A program made the position numbers and the translations under genes. A model generated the notes under the pieces. It searched no databases. It worked only from the letters and a program-made list of their open reading frames with translations, and had not been told where the DNA came from. A stretch of DNA of 64,000 nt from Acidobacteriota bacterium (GTDB lineage: Bacteria > Acidobacteriota > Thermoanaerobaculia > Gp7-AA8): contig JAFATB010000002.1 of NCBI GenBank assembly GCA_019244185.1, positions 102,551-166,550 of the forward strand, written 5' to 3'. Position 1 is the stretch's first letter. Each line of letters opens with the position of its first letter. Positions 16,768 through 19,926 of this stretch are shown here, one piece after another.

Positions 16768-17718
16768 TCACGCCGCCGCGATCTCCAGCACATCCGCCAG
16801 CACGGCCGCGGCGGTCGGCATCGAGCCGGCGCCGCGGCCGCTGAGGCAGATCTCGCCGACGGCGCGGCCGCGGATCACCACCGCGTTCTGTTCGTCGACA
16901 ACGCGTGCGAGCGGATCGTTCGCTGGCAACGCGCGTGTCTCGACCGTCAGCTCGACGCCGCCATGCACCCGTGTTGCCTCGGCGACTTGGCGCAGTACGC
17001 GACCGTTTCTGCGCGCATGCTCGACGTCCGCCACCGTGATGCTCGCGATGCCATCGACGCGCGTACGCCGTGGCGGTGCGTCGAACGCAAGCTCGGCGAG
17101 AATGCGCAGCTTCTGCGCCGCGTCTTCGCCGCTGAGGTCGAGCGACGGATCAGCTTCCGCAAACCCGCGCTCCTGCGCGCACGCGAGCGCCTCCGCCAAG
17201 GACAGTCCGGCTTCCATGCGCGTGAGCACGTAGTTCGACGTCCCGTTGAGGATGCCGCGGATCGACTCGATCGAATCGCCGGCGAGTCCGCGGCGCAATG
17301 CGCCGACGACGGGCACGCCGCCGCAGACGCTCGCCTCGAATCCGATCGCGACGCCGCTGCGCGCCGCCGCCGCGAACAACTCGCCGCCTGCCGTCGCCAG
17401 CAGCGCCTTGTTCGCGGTCACGACATGCCGCCGGCGCGCGAGCGCGCGGCGCACGAACGCGGCGGCCGCGTGCACGCCGCCGACCGTTTCGACGACGACG
17501 TCGCAGGTGTCGTCGTCGATGACGTCCGTGGCCGCCGTCGTGAGGAGCGCGCGATCCGCGATCGCGCGCTCCTTGGCGGCGTCGCGCACGAGAATGCGCG
17601 TGATGGAAAGCTCGACGCCGTGACGCGCGCGAATCCGCGCGCCTTCGCGTTCGACGAGCTGCACGAAGCCGCCGCCGACGGTGCCGCAGCCGAGGAGACC
17701 GATGCGCACGCGTTTCAT
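16768..17718 (-). CDS. hom: Homoserine dehydrogenase (short form, no ACT domain)
   Basis: GLLGCGTVGGG, VVTANKAL, FEASVCGGVP, GILNGTSNY, GFAEADP..D..GEDAAQKL, GRGAGSMPTA. ATG overlaps the metB stop (ATGA). Confidence 0.93.
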   Translation of the reverse strand: MKRVRIGLLGCGTVGGGFVQLVEREGARIRARHGVELSITRILVRDAAKERAIADRALLTTAATDVIDDDTCDVVVETVGGVHAAAAFVRRALARRRHVVTANKALLATAGGELFAAAARSGVAIGFEASVCGGVPVVGALRRGLAGDSIESIRGILNGTSNYVLTRMEAGLSLAEALACAQERGFAEADPSLDLSGEDAAQKLRILAELAFDAPPRRTRVDGIASITVADVEHARRNGRVLRQVAEATRVHGGVELTVETRALPANDPLARVVDEQNAVVIRGRAVGEICLSGRGAGSMPTAAAVLADVLEIAAA

Positions 17719-18902
17719 GCGACTCGCTCCTCGCCCGCCGCCGCGTCGCGGCGTACCGTACGCGCGAACGCCTGCTCGAGATCGTCGATGAGATCGCGCA
17801 CGTCTTCGAGTCCGACCGACAGTCGGATCAGACTGTCGCTGATGCCGACGTTTCGGCGCACCTCCGGCTCGACGGACGCGTGCGTCATCGTCGCCGGATG
17901 GCAGAAGAGACTCTTCACCGAGCCGAGGCTCTCGGCGAGCGTCCAGAGGTGCGGGCGGCGGGTGAAGGCGCGCGTTTCTTCGAGCGTGGTGTCGAGCTCG
18001 AACGACACGATCGCGCCGAAGCGCGCCATCTGGCGGCGCGCGATCGCGTGTCCCGGCTCGTCGACGAGGCCGGGATAGTAGACGCGTCGCACGAGATCGT
18101 GTGCGAGGAGCCAGCGCGCGACCAGCTCGGCGTTCGAGCAATGCCGCTCCATCCGCAAGCCGAGCGTCTTGATGCCGCGCAAGACGAGAAAGCAATCCTG
18201 CGGACCGGGCACCGCGCCGATGGCGTTCTGCAGGAACTTCAGCTCGTCGTAGAGTCCCTGATCGTTCGTGACCACGGCGCCGCCGAGGACGTCGCTGTGG
18301 CCGTTGATGTACTTGGTCGTCGAGTGCAGGACGAGATCGGCGCCGAGCGCGAGCGGCTGTTGCAGCACCGGCGTGGCAAACGTGTTGTCAACAACAGTGG
18401 TAATTCGGTTGGCACGAGCGATGGCAGAACACTTGGCGATGTCGGTGACATGCAGCAGCGGATTCGACGGCGTCTCCAGCCAGAGCAGCTTCGTCTCGGG
18501 GCGGATGGCGGCGTCGATGTTCGCCGGCGACGTCGTATCAACGAACGTGAACTCGATGCCGAAGCGCGCGAAGACTTTGGTGAAGATGCGCCACGCACCG
18601 CCGTAGAGGTCGCGCGTCGAGATGACGTGGTCTCCCCTGCTCAGCAGCGAAAGCACGGTGTGGATCGCGGCCATGCCGCTCGCGAACGCGAGGCCGTGGC
18701 GCGCGCCTTCGAGCGCGGCGAGGTTCTCCTCGAGCGCGGCGCGCGTCGGGTGACCGGTGCGCGCGTAGCAGAAGCCGTTATTTACGCCGGGCTCGGTCTG
18801 GCGGAAGGTCGAGGTCTGATAGATCGGCGTGGTGACGGCGCCGGTCGACGGATCGTCCGCCTGGCCGGCGTGAATGGCACGGGTATCGAAGCGGTAGGAC
18901 AT
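17715..18902 (-). CDS. metB: Cystathionine gamma-synthase/lyase family PLP enzyme
   Basis: PIYQTSTF, FASGMAAI, LETPSNP, VDNTFATP, HSTTKYINGHSDV, LAESLG, IRLSVGLE. SD GGAGG before ATG 18902. Synthase versus lyase not resolvable by eye. Confidence 0.85.
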   Translation of the reverse strand: MSYRFDTRAIHAGQADDPSTGAVTTPIYQTSTFRQTEPGVNNGFCYARTGHPTRAALEENLAALEGARHGLAFASGMAAIHTVLSLLSRGDHVISTRDLYGGAWRIFTKVFARFGIEFTFVDTTSPANIDAAIRPETKLLWLETPSNPLLHVTDIAKCSAIARANRITTVVDNTFATPVLQQPLALGADLVLHSTTKYINGHSDVLGGAVVTNDQGLYDELKFLQNAIGAVPGPQDCFLVLRGIKTLGLRMERHCSNAELVARWLLAHDLVRRVYYPGLVDEPGHAIARRQMARFGAIVSFELDTTLEETRAFTRRPHLWTLAESLGSVKSLFCHPATMTHASVEPEVRRNVGISDSLIRLSVGLEDVRDLIDDLEQAFARTVRRDAAAGEERVA

Positions 18903-18981
18903 TTGTTCCTCCGAACGCAAAGGTTCTGTGCGTGGCTGCGGGAGGGAAAGGCGCGGAGGGACCCGGGTCGGAAAACGCGGC

Positions 18982-19056
18982 TTACGCGTTCGCGCCCGGG
19001 CAACGCATCATCATTCGGCCCGAGAAGGTGAAGCTGTCGGTCGAACGGCGCGTCAT
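18982..19056 (-). CDS. Putative Met-rich leader peptide MTRRSTDSFTFSGRMMMRCPGANA (24 aa)
   Basis: Translated by hand. Contains ATG ATG ATG CGT TGC. Lies between the promoter and metB. Confidence 0.7.
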   Translation of the reverse strand: MTRRSTDSFTFSGRMMMRCPGANA

Positions 19057-19067
19057 GTTGGCGCGGG

Positions 19068-19096
19068 AGAGTACGCGTGCGTCAGTCGCGTGTCAA
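19068..19096 (-). promoter_or_regulatory. sigma70 promoter of the leader-metB-hom unit
   Basis: TTGACA (19096-19091), 17 nt, TACTCT (19073-19068). The -35 box overlaps the parB stop codon. Confidence 0.8.
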
Positions 19097-19926
19097 GCGT
19101 CCGCTTCGAGCCGCTTGAGCAGCTCGCGCACGGCTTCGATCACTTCCGTCTTCTCGACGTTCGGCTTCTTGAACGCGAGATTGAGCGTGAACGGGAGCGA
19201 TTTGTCCTTCAGCGCGAAGACGTAGTTCTTCGGACGCCCGGCTTTTTTCGGCTCCGGTTTCGCGGCCGTCTGCTTGCGCAGATCGTCGCGCGACAACTCC
19301 CCTGCCGCGAACGCGCGCACGACCTGCTCCATCGCTTCCTCGGAACCGGCGCGCGCGACCTGCACGAGGATGCTCTTGTTCGAGATGCCCGCCTCGCGGC
19401 ACATCGCGCGGATGCGATCGGGAATGTCGTTGATGAGCAGCGTCTCGGTGACCGTCGTGCGCGACTTGCCGATGACCTGCGAGATCTTCTCGTGCGTGTA
19501 GTCGAACTTCTGCTGCAGGATGGCGAGGCCTTCCGCTTCTTCGAACGGCGTCAGGTCCTTGCGCTGGATGTTCTCGATGAGCGCGATCTCGAGCTGCTCG
19601 CGATCGTCGACGTCGAGCTCGATGGCCGGAATCTCGTCGAGGCCCGCGAGCGTGGCGGCGCGGTAGCGGCGTTCGCCGGAGATGATCTGGTAGCGGTTCG
19701 GACCGATGAGGCGGACGAGGATCGGCTCGAGCACGCCTTTCTCGCGGACGCTCGCCGCGAGCTCTTCGATATTGCCGAGCTGCGTGCGCGGCTGTTCCGC
19801 GTTCGGCTCGATGAACTGCAGCGGCAGCATGGAGCCGATGTGGCGGCCGGAGCGGCGCGTGAGCTCCTCGACGTAATGCGAATCGTGGCGCATGACCGAG
19901 CGCTCGGGGAGTCCTCGTTTAGCCAT
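19093..19926 (-). CDS. parB: ParB/Spo0J family partition protein
   Basis: IEPNAEQPR, GVLEPILVR, ISGERRYRA CTP-binding motif, LIENIQRKDL, HTH. Start at MAKRGLP. Confidence 0.92.
   Translation of the reverse strand: MAKRGLPERSVMRHDSHYVEELTRRSGRHIGSMLPLQFIEPNAEQPRTQLGNIEELAASVREKGVLEPILVRLIGPNRYQIISGERRYRAATLAGLDEIPAIELDVDDREQLEIALIENIQRKDLTPFEEAEGLAILQQKFDYTHEKISQVIGKSRTTVTETLLINDIPDRIRAMCREAGISNKSILVQVARAGSEEAMEQVVRAFAAGELSRDDLRKQTAAKPEPKKAGRPKNYVFALKDKSLPFTLNLAFKKPNVEKTEVIEAVRELLKRLEADA

Follow-up and report, generated by a model that had tools for sequence, protein, structure and literature searches.

Upstream of two methionine-pathway genes of an acidobacterium, metB and hom, lies a tiny, conserved, methionine-rich reading frame, followed by a conserved RNA hairpin and a sequence that can mask the metB ribosome-binding site, and together these look like a ribosome-based methionine sensor of a kind not yet described for this amino acid. 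The element is on the minus strand of the 64,000-nucleotide stretch of DNA analysed here (the window), where a 24-codon small open reading frame (sORF) lacking a Shine-Dalgarno (SD) sequence contains three tandem AUG codons, and a GC-rich hairpin encloses its stop codon (Table 1). We collected 49 distinct copies of this arrangement, all in one family of Acidobacteriota (listed as Thermoanaerobaculia) and associated with metB. We favour, tentatively, a Met-tRNA-sensing leader-peptide attenuator that is probably leaderless and acts on SD masking, perhaps reinforced by Rho. The sensor is well supported, although by comparative evidence only; the switch is not.

An initial annotation had proposed a methionine-sensing ribosomal attenuator at this site, with a promoter, an SD-less leader ORF with a Met-Met-Met run and a Cys codon, a hairpin around the stop codon, and a C-rich tract with complementarity to the metB SD. 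What it observed is confirmed: each of these elements is where it was placed, and the arrangement is far from chance, because it recurs in 49 distinct loci. Its interpretation is partly supported, in that a Met-codon leader peptide upstream of metB-hom stands whereas the proposed switch does not have support.

Table 1. Features of the metB-hom leader region, in window coordinates
Coordinates	Strand	Feature	Remarks
19091..19096	-	-35 box TTGACA	Overlaps the stop codon of the upstream ParB-like gene; TTGAC at the matching place in 43 of 48 related loci
19068..19073	-	-10 box TACTCT (TAnnnT type)	17-nt spacer from the -35 box; matches TATAAT at only 3 of 6 positions and was not listed by a consensus promoter scan
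18982..19056	-	Leader sORF with no SD, probably leaderless: MTRRSTDSFTFSGRMMMRCPGANA plus stop TAA	ATG at 19056-19054, 11 nt after the -10 box; TAA at 18984-18982
19006..19014	-	Putative regulatory Met codons AUG-AUG-AUG	Family-wide M-x-M
19021..19053	-	5' arm of helix P0	Variable N-terminal coding part; pairs with the Met-codon region
19002..19020	-	3' arm of P0 (region A), GGCCGAAUGAUGAUGCGUU	Core nearly invariant, even at synonymous sites
18961..19001	-	Hairpin P1/P2	GCCCGGG...CCCGGGU outside, GAACGCG-UAAGC-CGCGUUU inside; starts 4 nt after the last Met codon; sORF stop codon in its loop
18952..18960	-	Anti-SD CCCUCCGCG	Directly after the hairpin
18913..18960	-	C-rich, G-poor tract between hairpin and SD	Candidate Rho loading site or standby site
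18908..18912	-	SD GGAGG of metB	Invariant in the alignment of 44 relatives
17715..18902	-	metB-like gene (Cys/Met metabolism PLP enzyme)	ATG at 18902; Pfam PF01053 at 502 bits; closest model cystathionine gamma-synthase, NCBIfam NF005871 at 511.1 bits against a cut-off of 513
16768..17718	-	hom (homoserine dehydrogenase)	ATG overlaps the metB stop as ATGA; hom follows metB in 36 of 49 loci

Conservation of the leader reading frame and its link to metB

Orthologous leaders keep a short ORF with a Met-codon cluster in a conserved frame, one of the comparative tests set out in advance. The promoter-proximal ATG is in frame with the Met core in 48 of 48 loci, although the distance between them takes 11 different values from 24 to 72 nt. 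The stop codons are TAG in 27, TAA in 17 and TGA in 5, lying 30 nt after the first core Met in 46 of 49. The core tripeptide is M-x-M in 49 of 49 copies (MMM 34, MVM 12, MIM 1, MAM 1, MLM 1), so that the run is not strictly MMM. Additional ATG trinucleotides in the N-terminal part fall 43, 5 and 0 in frames 0, +1 and +2, and 25 of 45 unique peptides have Met three residues before the core, where only the third base is constrained. Each peptide has two to five internal Met residues (two copies keep only two), and internal Met makes up 16% of residues against 1.2-1.3% in neighbouring genes. The copies are related, however, so these counts are not independent events.

The leaders are 18-34 codons long, with the conserved core R-M-x-M-R-[RCS]-P-G-A, usually with one to three further Met codons just upstream. 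The Cys codon that the initial annotation included is not conserved, being Arg in most copies and Ser in two. The Met region is nearly invariant in nucleotides even at synonymous sites (GCCGAAUGRUGAUGCGY), so that something beyond coding constrains it, which a pure codon-counting model does not explain. A TAnnnT hexamer lies 8-12 nt before the ATG in 48 of 48 loci, and exactly 11 nt before it in 34, and there is no SD; the leaderless start is inferred from this arrangement alone. We considered whether CGA before the Met run might act as a rare, slow codon, but it accounts for 33 of 169 Arg codons in three neighbouring genes, and this was rejected.

All 32 loci with the exact core and 15 of the 17 parsed diverged loci directly precede a metB orthologue; in the other two a Cys_Met_Meta_PP gene follows after about 450 nt. 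The element occurs once per genome, including a single copy in the genome of the window, and only in front of a methionine-pathway operon. A genome-wide scan for other Met-rich sORFs in front of long ORFs listed 41 candidates, nearly all of them looking like out-of-frame noise, and only the metB leader was convincing. One covariance-model hit outside the family (33.6 bits) lies inside long open frames without sORF architecture, and was judged spurious.

No relevant Rfam family matches at E<=10, as the three hits on 18500-19500 all lie inside the metB coding sequence, and there is no match at E<=0.1 in 12 diverse related loci; neither search found a SAM riboswitch or a T-box. In the whole genome SAM-I and SAM-IV were not found, with positive controls detected; SAM-I/IV and SAM-SAH were not found either, but their controls were detected nowhere, so those two answers are weak. 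There is also no hairpin-plus-U-run terminator within 18500-19500, and the hairpin is followed by UCCCUCCGCG; the element is therefore not a member of the classical transcriptional subtype of leader-peptide attenuators.

Predicted RNA structure and the effect of a ribosome footprint

Hairpin P1/P2 folds at -19 to -35 kcal/mol in the 29 relatives folded. Across relatives 92.1% of cells are paired, against 87.1 +/- 0.7 in shuffles and 31-54% in slid controls, and 5 pairs and 20 cells carry compensatory changes, reached by 0 of 500 shuffles. The anti-SD pairs with the metB SD region in 49 of 49 loci at -10 to -19 kcal/mol. Covariation in this helix is modest, with one outer pair being CG in 16 and UA in 8, and 16 compensatory cells against 10.7 +/- 2. 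Support for P0 is weaker: the duplex with the Met region averages -15.8 kcal/mol, with z = -1.59 against shuffles and 36 of 48 loci below -1, but it is only weakly better than natural GC-rich sequence (z = -0.77, in the best 10% in 13 of 48). At the middle codon an A-U pair of P0 changes to G-C. The leader as a whole folds no better than shuffles (z = -0.86).

Three abutting helices were found – P0, P1/P2 and anti-SD:SD – none of which share a strand. We found no anti-anti-SD and no shared-strand alternative helix of the trp 1:2/2:3/3:4 type. The alternative GAACGC/GCGTTC pairing suggested by the initial annotation is present in the window, but is not predicted across relatives (0.0-0.2 expected pairs between those segments). 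A classical 1:2 hairpin, GGGC:GCCC around the Met codons, was proposed by RNAalifold on a MAFFT alignment but rejected as a family feature because GGGCC becomes GAGCC or GCGCC in other genera. Other long-range pairings gave no signal against shuffles: the Met region with the pre-SD segment (z = -0.52), the spacer with the pre-SD segment (z = 0.04) or with the Met region (z = +0.40), and the 5' coding part with the anti-SD (-0.05), the SD region (0.00) or the metB start region (-0.05).

Equilibrium folding with a ribosome footprint does not show a clean switch. The predicted cost of opening the ribosome-binding site (RBS) is high, at 13.2 kcal/mol in the free RNA, and is 12.8, 11.8 and 11.8 kcal/mol with Met codons 1, 2 and 3 in the A site and 12.5 kcal/mol with the ribosome at the stop codon (n = 48). 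The gain on stalling is therefore only about 1.4 kcal/mol; for the third Met codon it exceeds 1 kcal/mol in 26 of 48 loci, but it is absent or reversed in 22 of 48. The SD remains paired in every ribosome state (mean unpaired probability 0.04-0.14).

A proposed methionine-specific attenuator and its rivals

Our preferred explanation, held tentatively, is a ribosome-mediated attenuator of the leader-peptide type that is specific for methionine. In this view, transcription starts at or a few bases before the SD-less ATG, and a pioneer ribosome translates the leader. The last Met codon lies exactly 4 nt before the GC-rich hairpin, which is followed within 1-3 nt by the anti-SD (CCCUCC). Without stalling, the RNA would settle into the three abutting helices and metB-hom would be poorly translated. 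When charged elongator Met-tRNA is scarce, the ribosome would wait on the Met codons, replace P0, and sit against or fray the base of P1, exactly where the anti-SD helix has to stack. This would weaken SD masking, so that metB, and hom through its overlapping ATGA, would be translated, and Rho acting on the C-rich untranslated tract may amplify the off state. The analysis itself demonstrates the sORF frame, the Met-codon enrichment, the hairpin, the anti-SD:SD complementarity, and the exclusive link to metB (or, in two loci, to a more distant Cys_Met_Meta_PP gene). By contrast, the transcription start, translation and stalling on the leader, the direction of the response, the steric or stacking coupling, and any role for Rho are inferred from sequence; a search for sequencing runs returned DNA metagenomes and one RNA run, which holds only 5% of the sampled words, and as contigs that cannot show starts or ends.

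Among the alternatives, the most plausible – although unlikely – is that the same Met-codon leader peptide is the sensor but the primary output is Rho-dependent termination, with SD masking secondary. A ribosome running on to the stop codon would melt the hairpin and leave its 3' arm and the C-rich tract single-stranded for Rho loading, whereas a ribosome stalled on the Met codons would leave the hairpin folded and the site shortened or shielded; with the stop codon inside the hairpin loop at a fixed position in 46 of 49 loci, only a ribosome that does not stall would open the hairpin. The tract averages 42% C and 17% G in 46 loci, with the first 45 nt after the hairpin in the window (18960-18916) in the top 0.05% of its 45-mers for C minus G, and a rho gene is present (725.8 bits, over the cut-off). 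Hairpin-plus-U-run terminators are not enriched in 20 kb of the window (9 found, 11.4 +/- 4 expected), and tnaC and mgtL provide precedents. However, the 3' arm of the hairpin is not itself C-rich, the tract is short for a Rho site (mean 58 nt), and its 5' end is the conserved and covarying anti-SD, which points to control of translation. The same genome also uses an ordinary hairpin-plus-U-run terminator after a SAM-II-like element upstream of metH, so Rho is not the only option in this organism.

Three further readings are each considered improbable. A constitutive leader, setting a low, stable level of metB-hom expression through mRNA protection, a standby site or translational coupling, with the Met codons a by-product of the conserved RNA sequence, would fit the nearly unchanged SD masking across ribosome states and the replaceable middle Met codon, but not the in-frame Met enrichment at several variable positions, the occurrence only in front of a methionine-pathway operon, or the exact spacing of Met codons, hairpin and anti-SD kept across genera. 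Slightly less likely is an undescribed ligand- or protein-binding RNA switch in which the sORF is incidental or only unfolds the RNA. The sequences GCCGAAUGRUGAUGCGYYGCCCGGG and GACCCGGGUCCCUCC are kept at the nucleotide level across genera, including synonymous sites, the hairpin and anti-SD form a classic expression platform, and Met genes are usually under riboswitch control; but beyond a simple hairpin there is no multi-stem junction or pseudoknot with covariation, no Rfam family matches in the searches described above, and an RNA-only element does not explain the frame kept through 11 length classes, the three stop codons at one position, or the in-frame ATG bias. Least likely is an arrest peptide, in which the nascent chain ...R-M-x-M-R-R-P-G-A-x-A stalls in response to free methionine or SAM, as TnaC does with tryptophan or plant CGS1 with SAM, rather than to a lack of Met-tRNA. 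The C-terminal 11 residues are conserved across 11 genera while the N-terminus varies freely, the distance from core to stop codon is fixed, and the gene is a cystathionine gamma-synthase-like enzyme, as is the target of nascent-peptide control in plants. Nevertheless, the residues after Pro-Gly are dictated by the hairpin, with the variable residue changing together with the opposite arm (one copy ends in PGVD and two others in PGASD...), and the R-M-x-M-R part is as invariant in nucleotides as in amino acids, so nothing shows selection on the peptide itself. The extra in-frame Met codons at varying positions fit codon sensing better, and a stall at high ligand would have to switch the operon off, for which no structural route was found.

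A bolder possibility, which we consider doubtful although not excluded, is that this is the first methionine-specific ribosome-mediated attenuator and works by a route not described before, in which the stalled ribosome does not free an alternative strand but physically displaces a 5' helix and butts against a hairpin whose base carries the anti-SD, so that occupancy is passed on by steric or stacking effects. It may also be bivalent, as Thr codons are three-fold enriched in frame in the variable part of the leader (16.1% against 5.6% background and 4.8% in the other frames), which would suit hom, whose product homoserine feeds both threonine and methionine.

Comparison with known systems

Leader-peptide attenuation is a textbook mechanism for Trp, His, Phe, Leu, Thr and Ile/Val, and more recently for Cys and Pro, whereas methionine genes are taught as the domain of SAM riboswitches, T-boxes and repressors; our full-text literature searches and the papers examined turned up no Met-codon attenuator. 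If the element responds as proposed, it fills that gap, shows that Met-tRNA charging, and not only SAM, can be read directly, and adds a terminator-free, leaderless design from a poorly studied phylum known almost only from metagenomes. As the same genome appears to place metH under a SAM-II-like element, the pathway may be split between a SAM signal and a Met-tRNA signal. The element is small (about 190 nt) and self-contained, and thus suitable for reporter work.

Classical attenuators of amino-acid operons (trpL, hisL, thrL, leuL, pheL and ilv leaders) similarly have a short translated ORF upstream of a biosynthetic operon, rich in codons for the end-product amino acid, with RNA structure overlapping the ORF and its stop codon. 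The element described here differs in its amino acid, in having no SD on the leader ORF, no hairpin-plus-U-run terminator and no demonstrable set of helices sharing strands, and in using an anti-SD as expression platform. In ermC-type translational attenuation, as is proposed here, a ribosome stalled in a leader ORF changes RNA pairing and frees the downstream SD, but stalling there depends on a drug and a nascent peptide and works through a cascade of helices that share strands, and no such cascade was found here. The Rho-dependent tnaC-tnaA and mgtL-mgtA leaders share a leader ORF followed by a C-rich, unstructured tract without an intrinsic terminator, where ribosome position could decide Rho access; in tna the Rho site abuts the stop codon and the stall is at the stop, whereas here the presumed stall is 21-27 nt before the stop and a hairpin lies between the stop and the C-rich tract.

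SAM riboswitches, such as the SAM-I-like 5'UTR of the Xanthomonas met operon (PMC6230763) and the SAM-II-like element before metH in this genome, control the same class of target genes with SD masking as the output, but sense SAM directly by RNA; the metB leader matches no SAM riboswitch model and carries a predicted translated ORF, so it would report Met-tRNA charging rather than SAM. Arabidopsis CGS1 exon 1 (MTO1) controls the same enzyme family through translation of an upstream peptide-coding segment, but it is eukaryotic, the MTO1 peptide lies inside the coding region, responds to SAM and triggers mRNA decay, and there is no sequence similarity. A precedent is provided by the leaderless polycysteine sORFs of mycobacteria (Canestrari et al., bioRxiv 10.1101/834739), which relieve SD masking when ribosomes stall. 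There, as is inferred for the element described here, the leaderless sORF is the first cistron, has its regulatory codons near the 3' end, and controls downstream translation without a terminator, in a high-GC organism and upstream of a sulfur amino-acid pathway. The phylum and amino acid differ, there is no sequence relationship, and in mycobacteria the Cys codons themselves pair with the SD region, whereas here the Met codons do not (0.1 expected pairs) and the anti-SD is a separate element beyond a hairpin that lies outside the codon run.

Organization of the metB-hom leader region

The region comprises a ParB-like gene, a 190-nt spacer, a gene for a Cys/Met-metabolism PLP enzyme, and a homoserine dehydrogenase gene (hom), all on the minus strand. 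The closest model for the PLP enzyme is cystathionine gamma-synthase (NF005871, 511.1 bits against a cut-off of 513), and we refer to it as metB. The start codon of hom overlaps the metB stop codon as ATGA, which suggests translational coupling, such that control at the metB ribosome-binding site (RBS) would pass on to hom. In the upstream ParB-like ORF of 540 codons the ParB_N and HTH_ParB domains lie only in residues 296-474, so that either the true start is later or there is a long N-terminal extension, and its stop codon overlaps the -35 box of the leader promoter.

Coordinates of features in and around the metB-hom leader and of related features at other loci
Feature	Position	Strand	Description
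ParB-like gene	20715-19093	-	540 codons
-35 box	19096-19091	-	TTGACA; 17 nt before the -10 box
-10 box	19073-19068	-	TACTCT; 11 nt before the sORF ATG
sORF start codon	19056	-	ATG, opening MTRRSTDSFTFSGRMMMRCPGANA
Variable N-terminal part of the sORF	19021-19053	-	Corresponding part of the 43 unique leaders is 16.1% Thr
Three Met codons	19014-19006	-	
Hairpin P1/P2	19001-18961	-	Starts four bases after the Met codons; loop holds the sORF stop codon
sORF stop codon	18984-18982	-	TAA
Anti-SD	18960-18952	-	CCCUCCGCG, directly after the hairpin and followed by a C-rich tract
metB Shine-Dalgarno (SD)	18912-18908	-	GGAGG
metB	18902-17715	-	Cys/Met-metabolism PLP enzyme
hom	17718-16768	-	Homoserine dehydrogenase
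metB stop and hom start	17715-17718	-	ATGA overlap
SAM-II-like aptamer before metH, outside the window	L089:1501-1576 (G000:C23:31250-31325)	-	Followed by a GC hairpin with a U run
Leader and downstream gene, locus L086	L086:161-1651	-	Longer leader C-terminus
Leader and downstream gene, locus L087	L087:582-2103	+	Longer leader C-terminus
Leader copy without in-frame ATG, locus L056	L056:1-154		GGGGAGGCGCCUCCUCC palindrome upstream
Inverted repeat, locus L068	L068:2896-2979	both	Weak match to a plant microRNA precursor model

The spacer reads exactly as the initial annotation had described it – a promoter, a short ORF containing three tandem Met codons, a hairpin enclosing the stop codon, and a C-rich tract before the metB SD – and that observation is confirmed. 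A consensus-based scan lists neither a promoter nor a terminator in this region, the -10 box matching TATAAT at only 3 of 6 positions, and a search against Rfam at E<=10 finds nothing relevant. The leader as a whole folds no better than shuffled sequences (z = -0.86), and taken alone the sequence would be only suggestive.

Distribution and coding signature of the leader sORF

A tblastn search of 60 related genomes with MetB identified orthologues at 81-100% identity in 24 loci, including that of the window itself, and one at about 70% identity in another genus. All 24 loci with enough upstream DNA carry the same leader; one locus (L024) is cut off but keeps the 3' half, and five loci (L026-L030) that hold 54-56% paralogues downstream of another gene lack the leader. 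An exact-pattern scan of 185,579 species genomes gave 31 loci, all titled Acidobacteriota or Thermoanaerobaculia, and after removal of duplicates there were 32 distinct copies, all of which were recovered by a covariance model of the core. In an even sample of the class the model hit 24 of 35 genomes of the window's own family, in 11 genera, and 0 of 115 genomes of other families; in a sample of the phylum it hit 3 of 4 genomes of the family and 1 of 146 outside it, the last lying inside long open frames and judged to be spurious. Of 18 diverged copies 17 were parsed, the remaining one (L080) being absent from later counts only because its SD escaped the search pattern, although its sORF is visible in the sequence. 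The working set is 49 distinct copies, one of which (L012) comes from a genome flagged as unpublished, and leaving it out lowers each count by one. The window's own genome holds a single copy.

The promoter-proximal ATG is in frame with the Met core in 48 of 48 copies, at distances that take 11 values between 24 and 72 nt. The other copy, L056, has no in-frame ATG upstream of the Met core in the 127 nt available before its contig ends, and the upstream DNA holds a GGGGAGGCGCCUCCUCC palindrome instead of the usual promoter and ATG. The stop codon lies 30 nt after the first core Met in 46 of 49 copies, and is TAG in 27, TAA in 17, and TGA in 5. These patterns are hard to explain for an untranslated RNA, although the copies are related, and the real number of independent events is nearer the number of length classes than 48. 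A TAnnnT hexamer lies 8-12 nt before the ATG in 48 of 48 copies (11 nt in 34), TTGAC lies upstream in 43 of 48, and no SD is present, such that the mRNA is probably leaderless or has a 5' UTR of a few bases, with the start site itself being inferred.

The core tripeptide is MMM in 34 copies, MVM in 12, and MIM, MAM, and MLM in one each, and the run is therefore M-x-M rather than strictly MMM. The Cys codon noted in the initial annotation is Arg in most copies. Outside of the core and the start codon, ATG occurs 43 times in frame, compared to 5 and 0 times in the other two frames; 25 of 45 unique peptides have Met three residues before the core, at a codon where only the third base is constrained, and one genus reads M-M-S-M-R-R-M-V-M. 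Internal Met residues number 2-5 per peptide and average 16% of residues, relative to a background of 1.2% in four neighbouring proteins, and ATG is 1.3% of codons in three neighbouring genes. Thr is also common in the variable N-terminal parts of the 43 unique leaders (16.1% of residues, compared to 5.6% in four neighbouring proteins and 4.8% when the same DNA is read in the other two frames), and a few leaders have TTT runs. This could reflect a second, threonine input, which would suit hom, or could be a side effect of the conserved AUGACGC start.

Every copy precedes the metB orthologue, although two copies of one genus do so with about 450 nt and an open frame of no assigned identity in between. 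In one genus (L086 and L087) the leader has an MMMM or MMM core and a longer C-terminus ending in RG, and is followed by an SD and about 100-166 codons with no Pfam match before the Cys_Met_Meta_PP domain, which represent either an N-terminal extension or an extra small gene. hom follows metB in 36 of 49 loci; of the 13 without a hit, 8 have too little DNA after metB to tell, and 5 have room but something else follows. At one locus (L068) a weak match on both strands to a plant microRNA precursor model (31.5 and 29.4 bits, gathering score 80) points to a long inverted repeat about 1.4 kb from the leader, and this is almost certainly not a microRNA.

Predicted RNA structure and candidate modes of switching

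The P1/P2 hairpin was examined on a model-guided alignment of the 32 exact-core copies, not including the diverged copies, in which 92.1% of cells are paired compared to 87.1 +/- 0.7 in shuffles. Five pairs and 20 cells carry changes on both sides, which is reached by 0 of 500 shuffles, and slid controls give 31-54%. The alignment was fitted to the structure, which favours it, but even so the raw sequences show CCCGGG/CCCGGG against CCCCGG/CCGGGG, and GGA/UCC. A duplex between the anti-SD and the SD with an energy of -10 to -19 kcal/mol forms in 49 of 49 copies. In an alignment of 44 copies – omitting the five with long insertions (L023, L048, L051, L057, and L075) – the five central pairs barely vary, but the two outer pairs covary, with CG 16 and UA 8 at one, and UG 14, GC 7, and UA 6 at the other. 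Compensatory cells number 16 compared to 10.7 +/- 2 in shuffles (reached by 0 of 500), and one genus changes both sides, to CUCCCG and CGGGAG; the support is real but modest. The insertions in those five loci are hairpin-forming, are 30-120 nt in length, and sit between the C-rich tract of the conserved leader and the metB SD, with the anti-SD:SD complementarity being kept; in L048 the insert looks like a hairpin followed by UUCUCU.

A further helix, P0, is predicted between the variable 5' coding part and the Met-codon region, with a mean duplex energy of -15.8 kcal/mol and z = -1.59 against mononucleotide shuffles (36 of 48 below -1). Against natural windows of the same loci z is only -0.77, with 13 of 48 in the best 10%. 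In favour of P0, where the middle codon of the core starts with G (13 copies, which may go back to few events) that G pairs with C in 13 of 13, and where it starts with A it pairs with U in 17 of 33 and is unpaired in 16. The three helices abut, with the Met region ending where P1 begins and the anti-SD beginning 1-3 nt after P1 ends. The Met region (GCCGAAUGRUGAUGCGY) is nearly invariant even at synonymous sites, which neither Met coding nor P0 fully explains.

To ask how the leader might switch, we masked a ribosome footprint at different positions and folded the remaining RNA. The SD stays paired in every state, with a mean unpaired probability of 0.04 in the free RNA, 0.04, 0.12, and 0.11 with Met codons 1, 2, and 3 in the A site, and 0.14 with the ribosome at the stop codon (n = 32). 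The cost of opening the RBS is 13.2 kcal/mol in the free RNA, then 12.8, 11.8, and 11.8 kcal/mol, and 12.5 kcal/mol at the stop codon (n = 48), and for Met 3 it is lower than free by more than 1 kcal/mol in 26 of 48 copies. The direction of the trend is right, but the effect is small. A segment-by-segment pairing map (n = 46, without L056, L086, and L087) shows no strand that changes partner in a consistent way; the classical scheme of helices sharing strands is not present, and the Met codons do not pair with the SD as the Cys codons do in mycobacteria.

The 4-nt distance from the last Met codon to P1 and the 1-3 nt from P1 to the anti-SD are fixed, and suggest to us that a ribosome waiting on the Met codons replaces P0 and sits at the base of P1, where the anti-SD helix must stack, and weakens it sterically, although this is an inference beyond the reach of the folding model. 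Rho could be the main output, or could amplify the off state. The tract between the hairpin and the SD is 42% C and 17% G (46 of 49 copies, three not matching the pattern used), the first 45 nt of the window's own tract are in the top 0.05% of 45-mers in the window for C minus G, a rho gene is present, and hairpin-plus-U-run terminators are not enriched in 20 kb of the window (9 found, 11.4 +/- 4 expected). Against Rho as the only device, the same genome has a textbook hairpin-plus-U-run terminator after a SAM-II-like element directly upstream of metH (S-methyl_trans plus Pterin_bind), which scores 38.1 bits on RF01726 (gathering score 44) and 31.4 bits on RF00521 (gathering score 36). The genome may therefore put metH under SAM control and metB-hom under the Met leader. 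SAM-I and SAM-IV were not found in the genome in searches whose controls gave a signal, and SAM-I/IV and SAM-SAH were not found in searches whose controls gave none.

The proposal in the initial annotation that this is a methionine-sensing ribosomal attenuator is thus supported in part: the reading as a Met-sensing leader peptide is well supported by comparative evidence, whereas the switching step and its direction are unproven, and both the transcription start and the steric coupling are inferred. We regard the steric mechanism as tentative, and consider it somewhat more likely than not that the leader is a Met-tRNA-sensing attenuator of some form, including the Rho variant.

Relationship to described attenuation systems

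A full-text literature search identified no Met-codon attenuator, although most subscription journals and supplements were outside its reach and an older report could have escaped us. The methionine-responsive 5' UTR of the Xanthomonas met operon is SAM-I-like and not a leader peptide (PMC6230763), a survey of Actinobacteria reports no conserved RNA element for methionine operons (PMC1262725), and we found no mention of a methionine leader in PMC2965389 or PMC4833913. In the genomes searched the element is confined to one family of Acidobacteriota.

In the reading favoured here the element would work like a leader-peptide attenuator, but it lacks the intrinsic terminator that is the defining feature of the classical transcriptional subtype. 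The closest described system is the leaderless poly-Cys sORF of mycobacteria (bioRxiv 10.1101/834739), with which it shares a leaderless start (inferred here), regulatory codons near the 3' end, and SD masking (predicted here) without a terminator, and from which it differs in that the regulatory codons of the mycobacterial system are themselves the anti-SD.
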